Assembly (NCBI GenBank): GCA_965221605.1
Contig: CBDCSK010000016.1
Span: 444,132 to 508,131, forward strand
Source of the DNA: Candidatus Aldehydirespirator sp.
GTDB taxonomy: Bacteria; Actinomycetota; Acidimicrobiia; Acidimicrobiales; Aldehydirespiratoraceae
Reading direction: 5' to 3'
DNA length: 64,000 bases
Positions 1,497-50,646 of the stretch are shown one piece after another. The notes under the pieces were generated by a model. It had not been told where the DNA came from and did not search any database. It saw only the letters and a list, made by a program, of their open reading frames with translations. The number at the start of each line of letters is the position of its first letter. Within the stretch, counting starts at the first letter, position 1. The position numbers were made by a program, and so were the translations under genes.

Positions 1497-4400
1497 TCAG
1501 ATGACCGAGCCGGTCTGTGGCTTCCCGGCGATCAGATCCCTGAGGTCCTGATAGCAGGGGATGAAGATCGGAGCGAGTTCGGTGGTCATCGCGCCGGGCT
1601 CGGTCCAGCCGTCGATGGGGCGCACCATGTGACGGTCCATCGTCTCGTGGTTCCTGAAGCGGTCGAGGTTGGCGTCGAGGTAGCCGATGGCCGCCCTGCG
1701 GCGCCGATCCTCGCTGTCGCCAGAGGCCTTCGGACCCTCGGTGGCGACGACGGGGTGCGGCGGCTCGCCGGTCTTCAGGAGTTGCGAGAGGTCCGTCGGT
1801 ATGCGGCCGTGCCGGGTCGGCAGCCCCAGGTCGTAGAGCCGGCGGTAGGCCTCGTAGACCCCCATGCCCTCACCGCCCACCGTGCCGAACGTCAGGCAGA
1901 AGCTCTCCAGCAACGCCGCGAGCAGGTCGTCACGGTCCCGCAGGCTCGTCAACAGAGGCCACGGGAACGTCGTCTCGCCGCCGGGGGACGCTGTGATGCG
2001 GATTGCGGTGGTCGGATCGGCGGTGATGTAGCCGCACAGACGAGCCACCGCGAAGCCCGAGACCATCGCCTCGAGGGCTTCTCGGGGCAACGGCACGAAA
2101 GCCTCGAGGGTCCGGCCCCTGCGCCACATCCAGAACGTCGCGGAACGCTGTGCAGGCGTGCCACACTTCTGCAACGCCTCGGCGACCGGACCGGCGAAGG
2201 ACCGCACGGCCATCGGGTACATCGGACGGCTGATGTAGGAGGAGACCAGGACTGACGAGCTGTCCTGCACACTGGCGGCATACCAGGCGTCGCCGACGAC
2301 GCTGCGGGCAGCGTCTTGGGCCGGATGGCCGTCCCCGAACGGGAACTGCGAGCAGACCGTGAGGAACTCCAGTGGATCGCTGTTGGTGTGTCCGTAGAGA
2401 GCCTCGTCTATCCGGACGAGCGGATCGGCCGCCTGCTTGGCGTTGCCGAGCTGCTGGCGGAAGTTCATCATGCGGCTCGGGTGGTCGTCGCGCTTGCGGC
2501 CCGTCTCATCCACCTCCTCTAAGTAGGACCGCAACCCCTCGCTCACGCTCCGGTTGAACCGCTCGCCGGGCCGGCGGGTCCACTCGTGCACACGCCGCTC
2601 GATGTCGTTCTCGCTCGCATCGCACACCACGTCAGCGTGCTGGCCGGGCTGCCAGCGGTGGTGCTCGCCGGGCCGTATCAGGGGCTTCATCTCGCTGTCG
2701 CCCGCGATCAGCCGGTAGCGGAGCGCGTCGGTGGGGAGATTCCCGAAGGGAATGTCGTCGATGCGTGCCTCGGCGCACAGGTCGCCGAGCAGGCCGGGCC
2801 ACTTGTCGTGGCGTTCCAGGGGGAACTCGACGGTGGAGGGCAGGTAGCGAGCCGACCGGTCGGTGACGCCCGACGGCCAGGCCTTCACGCTGTCCTCGTC
2901 GAGAGCGTTGCCGACCTCCTGCTGCGCGGCCCTCACCGCGCGCCGGAGCGCTCCGAAGACCTGCTCGCCCGCGGCCTCCATGGCCTGGGCCGCATGTTCG
3001 AGCCGCTCGGCGCGCCACCGCTGCGCAACTCCGCGGGCGATGCATTCGGCGGCGGTGCGCACCTCGGCGGAGTCACCGCTCAACTCCTCAGGACTCCGGA
3101 GCGCGTCAAGGCCCTTCTTCACTTCTGTTCGGTACGCACGCTCAGCCTTCTTGGCTTCAGAGCGGATCCGGTTGACATCGGCTGGGTTGAGCTTCTCGGC
3201 CACATACGAGAGGGCAGCGGCGGCCACGCTCAGCGACGACAGTGCCGCGACCGCCGATGTCGCCCTGCAGCTCGCCTCGACCAGTTGGCGGCACCATCGG
3301 CTGTCGGGCGGAGCGTCGGCCTTCTCGGCCCACTCGTCGGCCAGACGGCCACCGATGGACTTGATCCGCTGCTCCCATTGCTCGCCCGGCCCCTGCTGGT
3401 TCGCTGGGAACTGGAGCGCCACGATGACCTGGTCCCGCACACTTCGCACCGCCTCGTCCGAGGCGAAGCTCTCGTGCGCGGAGGGGTAGCCCCGGGCGGA
3501 ATCGCCGCCGGCGGTGGTGGCACCACGGTGGATTCTGTCGGCATAGTGCCGGCCCAGAGTCTCGATCTGCTCCTGCTCGGTGTCGCCGGTGGTCCGGCTC
3601 GCGAGCTGACTCAGCCGCAGATGTCCCTCGGACAGGCTCTCGAGGACTTGACGGGCGAGCAGTTGCTCGGCCCACAACGAGAACCGGTCCCGGCCGACGG
3701 TGATCTTGGCCGCGCCGAACGAGGACACCGCTCCGAAGAGGTGCTCTTGTGCGAAGGGGTAGCCGCCGTCGTTGTCCTTGGCGGAATCGCGCCAGTTGAC
3801 GTTGATGAAGTTGTGGATGCGCTCCTGCACGACATCATCGACCACCCAGGTGGACAGCGCCTCGCCGGTGGCGCGATAGACCTCCGCGGTATCGCCGAGG
3901 TCGGTGCCGCTGTAGCTGTGGCGTCCGACCAGGAAGATCGAGTGGGGACCCACGCCCGGCTCGTTGACGTTCTTGGTGCCAAGCGGTGACTCGATCTCCC
4001 CCGGTCGGGACCAGTAGGCGGCGAGCAGCTCGCTCATCAGTCCGAGCGAGTTGGCCGCCATCGAGCCGGAGTCGGGCAGATCGAAGATGTCGTTGGTGAA
4101 CAGCACCAGCGCGGGATGGCTGCCGCGGGGGTCGCAGGCCCGGACCAGATCTATGACATCGAGCGCGACGCCGGCACCGGTCCCACCGGCCATCGACGAG
4201 ATGACCACCACCAGCGGCTCGGGGGTCGCGCCGCCGAGCTCGGACTCGAAGCCGAGACGAGATCCGACTTCGTGCAGCTGCGGCCCCCCGGCCGCGGTGC
4301 GTGCGAAGGCTTCCTTGAGGCGATCCAGCACTGCGCCCTCCAGTGACAGCAGACCTGCGGCCCGGCCGATCCCGCGGTTGCGGCCCGCGCCGTCCTTGAG

Positions 4401-12635: not shown

Positions 12636-12676
12636 TGGGTTCCTCCGGGCTCGTGCTCGATCAAGTTATCCACACC

Positions 12677-43064: not shown

Positions 43065-44240
43065 TCAAACGACCGGTCGGCCACTGCGCTCCTCCAGCAC
43101 CAGCTGGCCGTTGTCGAAGGCCAGAGCGGCCTCGCCGGCGACCAGTCGCCGTATGGGCTCACCGACGAGGTCCGATCTCCACCCCGTCGACAGCCGGGCG
43201 TCGGCGTCACCGCGGATCAGGGCCTCGATGTCGGCGCGTGTGGCCAGCAGCGAGGGCTCGATCATGCGCTCCCGGGCCAGCTGGCCGACCCAGGAGGTGA
43301 CCAGGCCCACCGCGGGACGGAGACGCTCGGCTTGATCGGAGCGCCTCCGGGTTGCCGGCGGCGGTCGCCAGTCCGAGGCAAGCCCGTCAGCGACAGCCTT
43401 GAGGATGGCCGGCCCCAACCGGCCGCGGGCCATTCCCTCTCCCACCCCCCGGACCGCGGCCAGATCCCCGGTCGTGCGGGGGGCGGACCGGGCGATCGAG
43501 ACGACGGCCATGTCGGGCAGGACGTGGCGGACGGGCTGGTTGACCTTGGCCGCCCTCAGCTCGCGCCACATCGCCACCGACCGCACCACCGGCAGGTCGC
43601 GGCGCCTCAGGTGCCGGACGTCCTTGAGCCTGGTCCAGGCGTCCTCGGGTCGCTGGATGCGACGGCTTCGCTCCAGCAACAGGTCGAACTCGGCCTCGGC
43701 CCACCCGAGCCGGCCCAGCTCTCGAAGCCGTGACGCCAGCCGATCATGGATGTCCAGCAGGTGCATGACGTCGCTGGCCGCGTACTCGAGTTGCGAGGTC
43801 TTGAGCGGCCGCACCAGCCAGTCGGTGAGCCGGTCCGCCTTGGGGGGCCTCCAGCCGATCTCGCTCTCGTGCAGCGACGACAGCGCAGGCGTGCCGTGGC
43901 CGAGGAAACCGGCCGCGATCTGGGTGTCGAAGATCCGCTCCGGGACCGTCCCGCAGCAGTGCTCGAGGACCTCCAGGTCCTGACCGGCGGCATGGGCCAC
44001 CATCAGCCCGTTCCCGGAGAGCACCTCCGACAGCGGGCGGACATCGACGGCCAGCGGATCGATCAGCACCAGGTCACCGGGCCAGGCGACCTGGATCAGG
44101 GCGGCCTCGGGCCGGTAGGTGCGCTCCCGGTGGAACTCCGTGTCGAGGGCGTACCGGGGCTCGCTCGACAGCGCAGCCGCCGCGGCCCGCAACCCGGCGT
44201 CAGAGTCGATGTAGCGGTAGTTCCCCACTGCCTCCGTCAA
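43065..44240 (-). CDS. rnd: ribonuclease D
   Basis: DEDD exonuclease motif YALDTEFHRERTY. An HRDC-like region follows. Confidence 0.9.
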   Translation of the reverse strand: MTEAVGNYRYIDSDAGLRAAAAALSSEPRYALDTEFHRERTYRPEAALIQVAWPGDLVLIDPLAVDVRPLSEVLSGNGLMVAHAAGQDLEVLEHCCGTVPERIFDTQIAAGFLGHGTPALSSLHESEIGWRPPKADRLTDWLVRPLKTSQLEYAASDVMHLLDIHDRLASRLRELGRLGWAEAEFDLLLERSRRIQRPEDAWTRLKDVRHLRRRDLPVVRSVAMWRELRAAKVNQPVRHVLPDMAVVSIARSAPRTTGDLAAVRGVGEGMARGRLGPAILKAVADGLASDWRPPPATRRRSDQAERLRPAVGLVTSWVGQLARERMIEPSLLATRADIEALIRGDADARLSTGWRSDLVGEPIRRLVAGEAALAFDNGQLVLEERSGRPVV

Positions 44241-44246
44241 GGCCTC

Positions 44247-44588
44247 TCAGGCCGGCGCGGGGCCCGTCTCGACCGGTCGACCCGACTGGTGCCAGGCCTT
44301 GGTGCCGCCTTCGACGTTCACCGCGTCGACGCCGCAGGCTCGCAGGAACCCGACGGCCTGGCCGCTTCGCCCTCCCACGGCGCACACCACGCACACTGCC
44401 TGGTCCGCCGCTGCGGTCCGGAACTCCTCCACCGCCTCCGGGACCGTCGCCAGCGGCACCAGGACAGCGCCGGGTATGCGGACCTCCTCGTACTCGTCGG
44501 GTTCACGCACATCGAAGACCGCAGCGCCGGCGGCTCGCCGGCGGTCGAGCTCGTCGATATCGATCTCGGGAATCTCGGCGGCGTCCAT
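44247..44588 (-). CDS. rhodanese-like sulfurtransferase domain protein
   Basis: Active-site loop CAVGGRSGQA, 113 aa. Confidence 0.85.
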   Translation of the reverse strand: MDAAEIPEIDIDELDRRRAAGAAVFDVREPDEYEEVRIPGAVLVPLATVPEAVEEFRTAAADQAVCVVCAVGGRSGQAVGFLRACGVDAVNVEGGTKAWHQSGRPVETGPAPA

Positions 44589-47552: not shown

Positions 47553-47619
47553 AGGTGTAACGCTACCGGTCCGTGGGGAGTTCCTGTGGATAACTCTCCG
47601 GACCGGTACGGTTCCACCT

Positions 47620-48381
47620 ATGGCGCGGCATCCCTACCTGGAGGTGGACGGGCCCATCGCCTTCGCCCACCGCGGCGGGGCCGAGGAGTTACCCGAGAAC
47701 ACGCTGCGGGCCTTCCGCCACGCCGTCGAGCTCGGCTACACCCACGTGGAGACCGACGTCCACGCCACCGCCGACGGGGTGGCGGTGGCGTTCCACGACG
47801 ACGCCCTCGACCGGGTGACCGACAGCCGGGGCGTCGTCGGCGAGCTGGCGTGGAGCGAGGTCCGGCGAGCCCGGGTGGCCGGGACCGACCCGATCCTGCG
47901 CCTCGACGAGCTGCTCGAGGAGCTGCCCGACACGAGGATCAACATCGACCCCAAGAGCGACGCCGCGGTCGGGCCGCTGGTGGACGTGCTCCGGCGCGCC
48001 GGCGCCGTCGACCGCGTGTGCGTGTGCTCGTTCTCGGACCGTCGCACCCAGCGGGTGCGCGACCGGATCGGCGATTCGCTGTGCGTCGGCGCCGGCCCCC
48101 GGGGCATCGCCCGCCTGCTGGCCGCGTCGGCCCGGCTCCCCACCCCGGGCTCCCTCGACTACCACGCCGCCCAGGTCCCGGTGCGCTCCAAGGGCCTGAC
48201 GATCGTGCGCCCCGCGACAGTGGCCGCCGCCCACCGCCACGGCATCGCGGTCCATGTGTGGACCATCGACGAGCCCGCGGAGATGCACCGCCTGCTGGAC
48301 ATGGGCGTCGACGGCGTCATGACCGACCGGCCCGCGGTGCTGCGCCAGGTGATGATCGACCGCGGCCACTGGAGGGCCTGA
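47620..48381 (+). CDS. glycerophosphodiester phosphodiesterase family protein
   Basis: FAHRGGAEELPENTLRAF..ETDVHATADG. Confidence 0.9.
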   Translation: MARHPYLEVDGPIAFAHRGGAEELPENTLRAFRHAVELGYTHVETDVHATADGVAVAFHDDALDRVTDSRGVVGELAWSEVRRARVAGTDPILRLDELLEELPDTRINIDPKSDAAVGPLVDVLRRAGAVDRVCVCSFSDRRTQRVRDRIGDSLCVGAGPRGIARLLAASARLPTPGSLDYHAAQVPVRSKGLTIVRPATVAAAHRHGIAVHVWTIDEPAEMHRLLDMGVDGVMTDRPAVLRQVMIDRGHWRA

Positions 48382-48471
48382 CCGGCATCCGACGAGCGTC
48401 CTGACGGGCATTCTGGAGCGCTTGGACGACCTTGAACTGTGGCCGAGCTGTGCATAACCCGGCATTGGTTG

Positions 48472-48528
48472 GGGATTTCTGGCCGATGCTCGGGATTTCG
48501 GTGGGGATTTCGCGAATTCGGGTTGACA
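48472..48528 (+). promoter_or_regulatory. three GGGATTTC direct repeats followed by a TTGACA -35-like hexamer
   Basis: gggatttc at 48472, 48492 and 48504. ttgaca at 48523..48528. Local GC is well below the window average. Confidence 0.3.
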
Positions 48529-49059
48529 ACCAGGTTAAGACCCCCCAAGATGCGCAGCGTCCGACGTGAGCAGCGACAGAGACACCAGACCGAGTTCTGA
48601 GGGTTCCGGCCCGAGGAGGCGGAGCGGAGTCAACGGAGCGGTCCGCAGAGGACACCCAGCCAACCAGGCCAGTTCCCCAGGGAGCAGGTGGGTCAGCCGG
48701 GGACACGGAGGTTCTGCTCCGGGTGAGCGGTAGGAATCCCCGAAGGGGGAGGAGGACCGCAAAGCCGAAGGAGGATCGCCTCACCGGGAAGGCCGGTGAC
48801 AACCGAACACACCGACGGGTGTGGGAGGGAGTTCACCGGAATCGCTTCCAGGTGGGGGTGTCGCACAGGCATCGGAATCGAATCCGATCCCGACGGGGAG
48901 CGGAGGCGGAACCGGAGCCGGCGGGCACCACCGGGTGATTCAGATTCACGCCACGGAGGCGTCCGGGGCGGGGATCAGGGCACAGGACCGGATACGGGAA
49001 TGGGCCCCGGAGTACCGCAGACTCCGCCGGGAGGATGCGGTCGGTGGTAAAGGCGCTCT

Positions 49060-49111
49060 CGGAGCCCCGAGAAGTTGAGCGGCGCAGGTCGCGAGGCTAC
49101 TCGGGGCTCCG
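49060..49111 (+). other. 12-bp perfect-stem hairpin in the leader of the glycan cluster
   Basis: cggagccccgag (49060..49071) pairs with ctcggggctccg (49100..49111), with a 28-nt loop. It ends 62 nt upstream of ATG 49174. Confidence 0.4.
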
Positions 49112-49173
49112 TCGCGTCCCAGCCTCAACAGGGCTCATGCCGCAGGGCTCATGCCCCTACACTCGGCTGCCGG

Positions 49174-50646
49174 ATGGTCCCTGACAGCGCAGACGCAGCC
49201 GGCCCGGTGATCATCGGCGCCGGACCGGCCGGGCTCACCGCGGCGTACCAGTTCGCCAAGCACGGAGTGGCCGGCACCGTGTTGGAGGCCACCTCCGAGA
49301 TCGGCGGGATCTCCCAGACGGTGCAGCGCGACGGATGGCGGTTCGACATCGGCGGGCACCGCTTCTTCACCAAGGTCGGCGCGGTGCGCGACCTGTGGCA
49401 CGAGATCCTAGGAGGGTCCGAGGACTTCCTGGTGCGGCCCCGGTTGAGCCGCATCTACTACGGCGGCAAGTTCTACGACTACCCCCTGAACATCCGTAAC
49501 GCCTTGTCGAACCTCGGGCCGGTGGAGTCGGCCCGATGCGCGGCCTCTTACGCATGGGCCCGGCTGCGGCCGCCCAAGGACCAGAGCTCCTTCGAGGGGT
49601 ACATGGCGGCCCAGTTCGGGTGGCGCCTGTACCGGACCTTCTTCAAGACCTACACCGAGAAGGTCTGGGGCGTGCCCGCCACCGAGATCCAGGCCGACTG
49701 GGCGGCTCAGCGCATCAAGAACCTCAACCTGCTGAGGGCGGTCACCAACGCGGTGGTGCCGCGCCGCCGGCCCACGTCGATCACGAGCCTCATCGACTCC
49801 TTCGAATACCCCCGGCACGGGCCGGGGATGATGTGGGAGCGGTGCACCGACCTCGTCCGGGCCCGCGGCGCGAGGGTGCTCATGGAGCACCCGGTCACCG
49901 CCGTGCGCCACCGCGGCGGCCGGGCGGTGTCGGTGGTGGCCCGAACCGGCGACACCGACGTCGAGATCGAATGCGGCAGCGTGATCTCGTCGATGCCGCT
50001 CCCGCGGCTGGTGGAGTCGATGGACCCCGCTCCCCCGCCGGAAGTGCTCGCCGCCGCGGGGGCGCTCACCTTCAGGGACTTCCTGACGGTGGCTCTGGCC
50101 GTGCCGGCCGATTCGGCCTTCGCCGACAACTGGATCTACATCCACTCCCCCGACGTGCGGGTGGGCCGGGTGCAGAACTTCCGGTCGTGGTCGCCGCACA
50201 TGGTGCCCGATGACGGCATGACCTGCCTGGGGCTGGAGTACTTCGTGTTCGAGGGCGACGACCTCTGGACCTCTCCCGACGAGGAGCTGGTGTCGCTGGC
50301 GTCCCGCGAGCTGGAGACGCTGGGCCTGGTCCCCGCCGGCGCGGTGGCCGCGGGATGGGTGGTGCGGATGCCCAAGGCCTACCCCATGTACTCGCCGGGC
50401 TACCAGGACCATGTCGAGGTGCTGAGATCCTGGCTCGGCGCCAACGCGGCCAACGTCTGGCCGGTCGGGCGCAACGGCATGCACCGCTACAACAACCAGG
50501 ACCACTCCATGTTCACGGCCATGCTCGCGGTCGAGAACATCGTGCTCGGCACCTCCCACGACATCTGGAGCGTCAACGTCGAGTCGGAGTACCACGAGGA
50601 GCTCGACCAGTCCTCGGCCCCCGCTCCTTCGCCCCGGCCCGACTAG
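49174..50646 (+). CDS. FAD-dependent oxidoreductase (amine-oxidase/UDP-galactopyranose-mutase-like fold)
   Basis: N-terminal dinucleotide motif VIIGAGPAGLTAAYQF..LEATSEIGG. Confidence 0.85.
   Translation: MVPDSADAAGPVIIGAGPAGLTAAYQFAKHGVAGTVLEATSEIGGISQTVQRDGWRFDIGGHRFFTKVGAVRDLWHEILGGSEDFLVRPRLSRIYYGGKFYDYPLNIRNALSNLGPVESARCAASYAWARLRPPKDQSSFEGYMAAQFGWRLYRTFFKTYTEKVWGVPATEIQADWAAQRIKNLNLLRAVTNAVVPRRRPTSITSLIDSFEYPRHGPGMMWERCTDLVRARGARVLMEHPVTAVRHRGGRAVSVVARTGDTDVEIECGSVISSMPLPRLVESMDPAPPPEVLAAAGALTFRDFLTVALAVPADSAFADNWIYIHSPDVRVGRVQNFRSWSPHMVPDDGMTCLGLEYFVFEGDDLWTSPDEELVSLASRELETLGLVPAGAVAAGWVVRMPKAYPMYSPGYQDHVEVLRSWLGANAANVWPVGRNGMHRYNNQDHSMFTAMLAVENIVLGTSHDIWSVNVESEYHEELDQSSAPAPSPRPD

Follow-up and report, generated by a model that had tools for sequence, protein, structure and literature searches.

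The locus analysed here lies in a 64,000-nucleotide stretch (64 kb; hereafter the window, to which all coordinates refer) of contig CBDCSK010000016.1 from Candidatus Aldehydirespirator sp., and is centred on the gap 48382–49173 between two genes of the forward strand, which probably houses a gene for a large structured non-coding RNA (ncRNA). The upstream gene encodes a glycerophosphodiester phosphodiesterase (GDPD; 47620–48381, + strand; Pfam GDPD, 4e-45) and ends with its stop codon at 48381; the downstream gene, which starts with the ATG at 49174, encodes a flavin adenine dinucleotide (FAD)-dependent oxidoreductase of the PRK07208 family (49174–50646, + strand; assigned with Pfam and NCBIfam). 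They are the conserved left and right neighbours of the RNA, the oxidoreductase gene lying outside the RNA unit. From 5′ to 3′, this unit comprises five operator boxes (48437–48511), a predicted promoter, and a predicted structured transcript of ~560–570 nt (~565; 48557–49115, + strand) that ends with a terminator-type hairpin; the transcript is suggested by nhmmer homologues, covariation, minimum free energy (MFE) and the lack of an open reading frame (ORF).

The GC content at third codon positions (GC3), which is 0.90–1.00 in both flanking genes, drops to 0.5–0.8 in all three phases between ~48380 and ~49170, and the nine local ORFs (both strands) have tblastn matches only in relatives with 83–91% identity, where the frames are broken, and none in the RNA homologues with ~50% identity. 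Because the GC3 periodicity is absent and the local ORFs are unmatched in distant homologues, the gap is read as non-coding, and a protein-coding reading was ruled out. An AT-rich homologue (L007; related loci are designated by L numbers) lacks any ORF of at least 60 amino acids over most of the element, and a scan for tRNAs and transfer-messenger RNA (tmRNA) gave no match. The gap had been described as purine-rich as well as non-coding in a preliminary description of the window, and indeed A+G amounts to 57% across the gap and to 61–66% per 100 nt within 48682–49081, versus 50% for the whole window. The MFE of the gap is −297 kcal/mol, with a z-score of −7.25 relative to shuffled sequences.

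The same description had pointed to at least eight GGAGG motifs; we counted nine, two of which overlap (48615, 48707, 48748, 48751, 48770, 48824, 48902, 48955 and 49030), and no CCTCC within 48382–49173. No other 800-nt stretch of the window contains more than seven GGAGG, so that the gap is the densest. Dinucleotide-preserving shuffles of the gap contain 4.9 ± 2.1 copies, and 4.6% of them reach nine (p ~0.05); the excess over shuffles being only marginal, it mostly reflects the G+A-rich composition. As for the two other elements said to recur, GAATC is found four times and ACGGGG once. Note that the sole other motif-skewed stretch of the window, 43600–44500, displays 8–9 CCTCC per 800 nt (i.e. 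GGAGG on the minus strand). This 43.6–44.5 kb stretch was considered as a second copy of the RNA and rejected: it reads as ordinary minus-strand coding sequence, and nhmmer finds a single copy of the RNA in the window.

The hexamers TTGACA (48523–48528, + strand) and CAAGAT (48546–48551, + strand; A at position 2 and T at position 6), separated by 17 nt, form what is predicted to be a sigma-A-type promoter. The −35 element is present as (C)TTGAC in nearly all homologues, and the −10 element is found at the same spacing as CAAGAT, CAGGAT, CAGTAT or CAGAGT, the 43%-GC locus L007 having kept CAAGAT itself. A simple promoter scan of the window did not call this promoter because its −10 is CAAGAT. 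At the opposite end of the unit, helix 16 (49060–49111, + strand) is a terminator-type hairpin, CGGAGCCCCGAG-AAGUUGA-[GCGGC GCAG GUCGC]-GAGGCUA-CUCGGGGCUCCG, which is 99.7% paired and contains tandem G·A pairs, a GNRA-type cap and two invariant U·G pairs. It is the most conserved RNA element of the family, with compensatory variants in L007 and L147, and is followed in most relatives, including those of lower GC content, by a U-run (e.g. GGGGCUUCGUUCCGUUUU).

Homologues of the element were found by several routes, their taxonomic labels being those of the record titles. The oxidoreductase assigns the window to Acidimicrobiales, and the genome nearest to that of the window as judged from this protein (90% amino acid identity) is a 'Candidatus Aldehydirespirator' metagenome-assembled genome (MAG; L001), whose intergenic region, found by synteny, is 86% identical over 694 nt; synteny also revealed the same architecture in a distant Acidimicrobiales MAG (L003), the oxidoreductase of which is 65% identical. 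A metagenome scan with the pattern of the 3′ hairpin yielded 63 loci, ~15 of them by chance, and profile searches with nhmmer yielded full-length homologues of equal length at ~26 loci, six at 83–91% identity and the others at ~50%. Independently of the hairpin pattern, L007, a marine single-cell genome, was noticed via its operator boxes, and L147/L148, which carry the variant hairpin GAGGCUGCUCGGGG, were reached via a neighbouring small protein. Altogether, there are ~30 full-length homologues, in which the length of the RNA is kept down to ~50% identity. At least 11 further loci carry short forms of ~200–320 nt with the same operator, promoter and 3′ hairpin, the last two being only ~190–310 nt apart; one of these (L140) displays the same synteny, with a pyruvate kinase (PK) gene next to the GDPD gene.

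The alignment of these Acidimicrobiia relatives, a comparison suggested in the preliminary description, revealed both conservation and covariation. The consensus fold calculated with RNAalifold from 18 distinct sequences consists of 75 pairs in 16 helices, with compensatory double changes at 32 pairs. Standard pairs occupy 94.7% of the cells. Shuffling the partners between sequences lowers this to 84%, with none of 500 shuffles attaining 94.7%, and sliding them by 1–3 columns lowers it to 53% or less; cells in which both sides have changed number 164, versus 68 and at most 49, respectively. The helices, most of which are local and a few long-range, are kept via compensatory changes down to ~50% identity, and multi-branched MFE folds are obtained for both long and short forms. 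GNRA, UNCG or GNCG tetraloops, whose type swaps between lineages, cap many of the hairpins. G-U pairs make up 13.5% of the pair cells, and only 82.4% would be paired if the reverse strand were the RNA; this G-U bias, the promoter and the U-run together assign to the + strand the structured ncRNA that had been put forward as a candidate, and disfavour the accompanying idea of a minus-strand transcript presenting CCUCC anti-Shine-Dalgarno motifs. The three hairpins named at that time are present to within 1 nt (48782–48798, 48871–48888 and 48837–48848), but they are not among the conserved helices of the family.

The conserved helices are illustrated by the following ones, all on the + strand. 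Helix 1 is a hairpin, GGGU(CUCG... )GCCC (48601–48612; columns 49–60 of alignment A2), 98.6% paired with two compensatory pairs, which becomes GGGC-GCAA-GCCC in distant homologues, so that its tetraloop alternates between GNRA and YNCG. Helix 2 (ACCAGGCC / GGTGGGT, 48663–48693; 99.1% paired, two compensatory pairs) encloses a hairpin capped by UUCG or CUCG and is followed on its 3′ side by a conserved single-stranded motif, GUC(A/G)RCCGnAGRCAC, which is kept even in the low-GC L007. The hairpins of helix 8 (CACACC-GACG-GGUGUG, 48808–48823) and helix 14 (GGAGCC-GGCG-GGCACC, 48914–48929) are both 98.1% paired, with three of six pairs and two pairs, respectively, being compensatory. Between them, helix 13 (AUCCC-GACG-GGGAG, 48887–48900) is 91% paired with three compensatory pairs and an invariant GACG loop. 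Finally, six of the eight pairs of helix 15 (GCAGACUCC-GCCG-GGAGGAUGC, 49017–49038) are compensatory, and its 3′ arm is one of the GGAGG motifs.

The genetic context varies considerably. The RNA and the oxidoreductase gene, its commonest right-hand neighbour, are ~60–100 nt apart on the same strand in the window and in L001/L143. A gene for a zinc-ribbon protein of 62–68 amino acids, convergent with the RNA, occupies the space between the RNA terminator and the oxidoreductase gene in most distant homologues; in L132/L097, whose RNA is 91% identical, the GDPD–RNA and RNA–oxidoreductase distances are 2.4 kb and 1.6 kb; in L007, the RNA and the oxidoreductase gene have two genes of the opposite strand between them. 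Opposite-strand or extra genes precede the oxidoreductase gene in L003, L007, L086, L099, L103, L108, L132 and others. Conversely, L002, L016 and L146 are syntenic and have a tightly packed GDPD–(Zn-ribbon)–oxidoreductase arrangement without the RNA. Because of these intervening genes and of the RNA-less syntenic genomes, we regard the RNA unit as a self-contained, dispensable module, as judged from gene order, which is usually but not always located between the GDPD and oxidoreductase genes. In L145, an insertion sequence (IS) element with an rve integrase fragment (3190–4260) fills the gap between the GDPD and Zn-ribbon genes, which is the site of the RNA elsewhere; in L146, which is near-identical to L145, the GDPD and Zn-ribbon genes abut.

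The Zn-ribbon protein (e.g. L003:3715–3912, − strand) has four cysteines and a nearly invariant C-terminus, YEPKMNVTPNAVALKDD. It is also encoded in L086, L099, L103, L108, L142, L147 and others, and is absent from the window. The protein collection contains 3270 homologues of it, each from Acidimicrobiia/Actinomycetota, and no Pfam or NCBIfam family covers it. Its gene ends right at the RNA terminator in most distant homologues and occurs in RNA-less genomes too.

Upstream of the promoter, five direct repeats of the form cTG(T/G)GGAnnnC are arranged in the same orientation (48437–48511). The T of each box stands at −86, −74, −53, −33 (or −40) and −21 from the −35 element, i.e. with spacings of 11–12 or 20–21 bp that place the boxes on one face of the helix, and both the offsets and the consensus are conserved across long and short forms. 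More specifically, box a (CTGTGGCCGAG, 48437–48447, + strand, as are the other boxes) has its T at −85/−86 in long and short members; box b (CTGTGCATAAC, 48448–48458) is found at −74 in 21 homologues with the consensus (C)TGT(G/T)NANAA(C); box c (TTGGGGATTTC, 48469–48479), at −53, reads CTGGGGAYnnn in all homologues; box d (CTCGGGATTTC, 48489–48499) is found at −33 in the clade of the window, in the short forms and in L110/L083, and is replaced by GGTGGGAAT at −40 in the other long forms; the promoter-proximal box e (GTGGGGATTTC, 48501–48511), at −21, reads CCTG(G/T)GGATTTC in 22 homologues. The boxes are represented by two matrices, TGTGNANAA and CCTGGGGATTTC. In related loci totalling 1.14 Mb, there are hardly any tandem boxes other than those at the promoters of this RNA.

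Two types of operator resemble this array. Box b contains TGTGCATAA, the complement of the perfect DnaA-box consensus TTATNCACA, and its own consensus is the complement of the DnaA-box consensus TTNTNCACA, with 0–1 mismatches in nearly all of the 21 homologues; in L003 and L007 it reads TGTGGACAA, a perfect actinobacterial DnaA box. The consensus TT(A/G)TNCACA is partly fitted by box a and fitted with three mismatches by boxes c–e (TGGGGATTT). Reported DnaA boxes include TTATCCACA and TTGTCCACA, and arrays bound by DnaA oligomers have one orientation and a similar spacing (PMC4285127). Like the arrays at oriC, at datA/DARS and in the clusters of B. subtilis, the operator is phased and uniformly oriented, its weaker boxes continuing from a strong one; unlike them, it is not at an origin, it has its own proximal consensus (CCTGGGGATTTC) and it is locked to the promoter of an RNA gene. 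On the other hand, repeats in the same orientation, with a period of ~11 bp and adjoining the −35 element, are what characterises operators of OmpR/PhoB-type regulators. The best site of C. glutamicum PhoR is CCTGTGAAaatCCTGTGAA, and glpQ1 is among its targets (PMC3353115); the RegX3 motif is GGTGCcaactGGTGA (doi 10.1101/400960); Streptomyces PhoP binds 11-nt repeat units at glpQ promoters (PMC7866108). The array is akin to these pho boxes (PhoR CCTGTGAA-n3-CCTGTGAA, the 11-nt direct repeat units of PhoP, and RegX3 GGTGC-n5-GGTGA) in that 11-bp repeats in one orientation abut the −35 element, its core CCTG(T/G)GGA is one base away from the PhoR CCTGTGAA, and the neighbouring GDPD is a classical Pho-regulon function. 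It differs from them in having five units arranged as 2+1+2 instead of a simple dimer site.

Related boxes were also noted elsewhere. A single one, CCTGTGGATAAC (47583–47594, + strand), which includes a perfect TTATCCACA on the minus strand (47585–47593), lies in the 67-bp divergent spacer between the PK and GDPD genes, and coincides in part with what is likely the −35 element of a leaderless pyk promoter. It is kept in six close relatives ~31 nt from the pyruvate kinase start while its flanks vary; its distance is thus fixed to the pyruvate kinase gene and not to the GDPD gene, which weakens the case for GDPD as a co-regulated Pho gene and is a further difference from pho boxes. A third perfect TTATCCACA of the window, at 12666–12674, lies in the short gap between a 505-amino-acid ORF (probably of the dop/pafA type) and a Pup-like small ORF, the two suggesting a Pup-proteasome cluster at ~11–14 kb. 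The box pair 59054/59076 is inside a membrane-protein ORF and probably due to chance. In one divergent clade (L083:~3456, − strand; L126:~561, + strand), a tandem pair, CAGTGGATTTGCTGTGGAT, is located ~80 nt upstream of the convergent Zn-ribbon gene, and the small protein of that clade may share the regulator of the RNA; such boxes are confined to L083 and L126 and absent in L144–L149, and the Zn-ribbon gene was rejected as a general member of the regulon. Four tandem boxes, CCTGTGCGCAAC ... CCTGTGTCTTT CCTGTCGACGC CCTGTGGATCGC, are present in another Acidimicrobiales MAG (L061:2190–2250), where they are bordered by the Zn-ribbon gene region on one side and by the 3′ end of a gene for a membrane glycosyltransferase-like protein on the other, with no recognisable RNA adjacent.

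Comparison with known RNAs gave no assignment, as had been suspected. With gathering thresholds applied, no Rfam 15 family matches anywhere in the window, and with the limit relaxed to E ≤ 10 the region 48200–49400 matches only F6 and a plant miRNA, both on the terminator hairpin. The match to F6, a small RNA (sRNA) of the tuberculosis bacillus, is below threshold (24 bits versus a gathering score of 46; E = 0.11; 49058–49113) and simply covers the stem of the 3′ hairpin, which is no evidence of relatedness to F6. At E ≤ 1, there was no match in six short-form loci and only a tRNA in 14 related loci. The unmatched families include 6S, OLE, ROOL, GOLLD, raiA, HEARO, ydaO, riboswitches, RNase P, tmRNA and the signal recognition particle (SRP) RNA, and we found no description of an RNA of this kind in Acidimicrobiia in the literature. 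In its size (>500 nt), its many covarying helices, its GNRA/UNCG caps, its stand-alone nature and its patchy distribution, the predicted RNA is reminiscent of OLE, ROOL, GOLLD and raiA, the function of which is likewise not evident from gene context. It differs from them, besides the silence of their Rfam models, in its host lineage, in its conserved multi-box operator and in its drastic size variants (~200 to 570 nt).

The element has its own promoter, a terminator, no conserved ORF and a covariation-backed fold, all predicted from sequence, which is what is expected of a stand-alone ncRNA, and it is highly probable that it is an independently transcribed, structured ncRNA gene. Taking all the data together, we propose, with a probability of roughly 60%, that 48437–49115 is a self-contained + strand gene for a large structured ncRNA of an uncatalogued Acidimicrobiia family. 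The RNA would be made as a discrete, stable transcript whose fold enables it to act in trans, by binding proteins or serving as a scaffold in the manner of 6S, Ms1 or the large orphan RNAs; it would work neither through its GGAGG motifs nor as a cis leader. Its synthesis would most likely depend on a DNA-binding protein assembling as an oligomer along the five phased repeats up to the −35 element, and this protein could be either DnaA, given the match of the distal box to TTNTNCACA, or a response regulator of the OmpR/PhoB family, given the resemblance of the 11-bp repeats to the PhoR site. A structural or protein-binding RNA acting in trans is the mode that we tentatively favour over any other, at somewhat less than even odds, because ~16 helices have been selected over sequence, the size variation is modular and no seed or loop motif is enriched.

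Several observations weigh against this proposal or limit its reach. The ends, abundance and stability of the transcript are all inferred from sequence, and the alignment that yielded the consensus structure also served to test it. Since the pattern of the 3′ hairpin was used to recover most homologues, the invariance of this hairpin is overstated. In the window, it is followed by CGUCGCGUCCC, without a U-run, which is why a simple terminator scan calls no terminator here; hairpin terminators devoid of a U-run are common in high-GC Actinobacteria, and read-through into the oxidoreductase gene 60 nt downstream is conceivable in this genome. The bodies of the short forms do not align to the long forms, nor well to each other, and in global alignments of short with long forms only the 3′ hairpin aligns, so that homology of the bodies is unsupported. 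For this reason, we reduce the conserved core of the wider family, as defined by sequence comparison, to the operator and promoter, a short 5′ segment and the 3′ hairpin. The protein-binding mode draws on the conservation pattern, no repeated loop motif being enriched and no gene for a partner protein being consistently linked to the RNA. Finally, the box sequences point ambiguously to two unrelated regulators, DnaA and one of the OmpR/PhoB type, which appear about equally likely.

The first alternatives to consider build on those that had been raised together with the idea of a structured RNA. A long 5′ leader, riboswitch or attenuator would control in cis the oxidoreductase gene and the glycan (GT4/AftD-like) cluster behind it. 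The short same-strand distance to the oxidoreductase gene in the window and in L001/L143, its status as commonest right-hand neighbour and the conceivable read-through are all in line with this explanation, which is nonetheless very improbable: contiguity is lost, since opposite-strand or extra genes intervene (the convergent small gene in most distant homologues, 1.6 kb in L132/L097, two genes in L007) and a U-run follows the hairpin in relatives, and L002, L016 and L146 retain the oxidoreductase and glycan genes without the RNA. The element has its own conserved promoter and terminator hairpin, and no riboswitch family matches it even at E ≤ 10. The notion of a ribosome-titrating RNA, i.e. 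a Shine-Dalgarno mimic that would sequester 30S subunits, or C-rich sRNAs such as 6C, via its GGAGG/purine motifs, is consistent with the nine GGAGG and zero CCTCC of the window copy and with a purine content of 55–64% in high-GC members. Besides the marginal excess in the window (p ~0.05), the comparative data largely refute it and make it scarcely credible. Already at 86% identity the positions of the motifs are no longer kept, L001 retaining only 3–4 of the nine; GGAGG occurs 111 times across 32 family members versus 92 expected from composition, next to 78 versus 75 for GACGG, 117 versus 114 for AGGA and a mildly raised 121 versus 87 for CGNCGG; several GGAGG are arms of consensus helices, such as that at 49030 in helix 15; and purines amount to 51% in L007 (43% GC). 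Nor do these 32 members contain a loop-presented motif enriched over composition, as would be expected of a Shine-Dalgarno mimic or of a protein sponge like CsrB/RsmZ. By their sequence distribution, the GGAGG motifs thus read as a compositional by-product and not as a functional feature of the RNA.

The remaining alternatives leave the RNA its own gene or shift the emphasis to the DNA. An Acidimicrobiia counterpart of Ms1 that would sequester the RNA polymerase (RNAP) core or holoenzyme in non-growing cells is a sub-case of the structural/protein-binding mode. Ms1 (MTS2823/scr3559), the RNAP-core-binding RNA of Actinomycetes (230–300 nt; PMC9130861, PMC4191392), is likewise a structured RNA from a stand-alone gene in a conserved intergenic site, which has a sigma-A-type promoter and ends in an intrinsic terminator, the latter being predicted here from the hairpin and from the U-run of relatives; it is flanked by genes for a HAD-IB hydrolase ('inhibition of morphological differentiation') and an 'oxidoreductase', and is unreported in Acidimicrobiia (PMC9130861). 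The short forms overlap Ms1 and 6S RNA in size, the long form being about twice as long as Ms1, and conservation of structure over sequence together with a promoter of its own is also found with 6S RNA, which leaves room for an abundant regulatory RNA. This analogy is rather unlikely to reflect a common identity, however: blastn (word size 7, +1/−1) with the S. coelicolor Ms1, mapped by rapid amplification of cDNA ends (RACE), matched the window and 143 loci at chance level only (E ≥ 0.04) and always outside the element; the flanking genes encode GDPD and an FAD-dependent oxidoreductase, a HAD hydrolase being absent; no Ms1 adjoins the oxidoreductase homologues in Kitasatospora or Micromonospora; the consensus is multi-branched, with neither the rod and central bubble described for Ms1 (PMC4191392) nor the closing stem and central bubble of 6S RNA, the Rfam model of which is unmatched at E ≤ 10; and the host belongs to a different class. 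A base-pairing sRNA acting in trans, or a precursor of a short sRNA released from the 3′ end, whose hairpin and single-stranded seed would target mRNAs, is unlikely as well. It would account for the shortness of the most conserved parts (~25 nt at the 5′ end, GUCRRCCGnAGRCAC, GGUGA and the 3′ hairpin) and for the fast evolution of the short-form body, but at least 16 helices kept over ~565 nt in the long forms are unusual for such sRNAs, no target complementarity was identified and, to our knowledge, Actinobacteria lack Hfq. The locus might also be primarily a DNA element, a DnaA-box cluster of the datA/DARS/DBC type that titrates or remodels DnaA, with transcription of the RNA being ancillary. 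Box b, which matches TTNTNCACA in 21 homologues (perfectly, as TGTGGACAA, in L003 and L007), the spacing of the five boxes, as in DnaA-oligomer arrays (PMC4285127), and the three perfect TTATNCACA of the window versus 0.17 expected, two of them at this locus, are in favour of such a cluster. What makes it improbable is that the proximal boxes (CCTGGGGATTTC) depart from the DnaA box at three positions, including a critical A, that the array is always in register with the −35 and −10 elements, and that strong selection acts on the structure of the RNA that follows it; moreover, a replication origin was discarded, as there is no GC-skew switch or origin signature in the window.

Further downstream of the locus, behind the oxidoreductase gene and a GT4 gene, the segment 51895–56283 encodes a 1462-amino-acid membrane protein with an AftD-type GT-C arabinofuranosyltransferase domain and carbohydrate-binding/F5-8 type C modules, which suggests a mycobacterial-style arabinan/glycan cluster in this Acidimicrobiia genome.

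Apart from rRNA, RNase P, tmRNA and SRP RNA, large and highly structured RNAs are rare in bacteria, and OLE, ROOL, GOLLD, raiA, 6S and Ms1 have each started new biology. We know of no lineage-specific RNA in Acidimicrobiia, which are plentiful in oceans, soils and wastewater and hardly tractable. The family described here comes with predicted ends, a covariation-backed fold, size variants, syntenic genomes with and without the RNA and a conserved operator, and is therefore directly testable. The density of GGAGG, read as a by-product of composition, calls for caution in the motif-based reading of high-GC genomes. It is possible, at slightly less than even odds, that the gene represents an undescribed class of large (~565 nt) Acidimicrobiia-specific RNA with modular size variants and an operator tied to DnaA or to a phosphate/envelope regulator, which would form the core of a ribonucleoprotein or a ribozyme. 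If this is true, the family would be on a par with OLE, ROOL, GOLLD and raiA and would be the first large structured RNA to read out the DnaA or Pho status of the cell.

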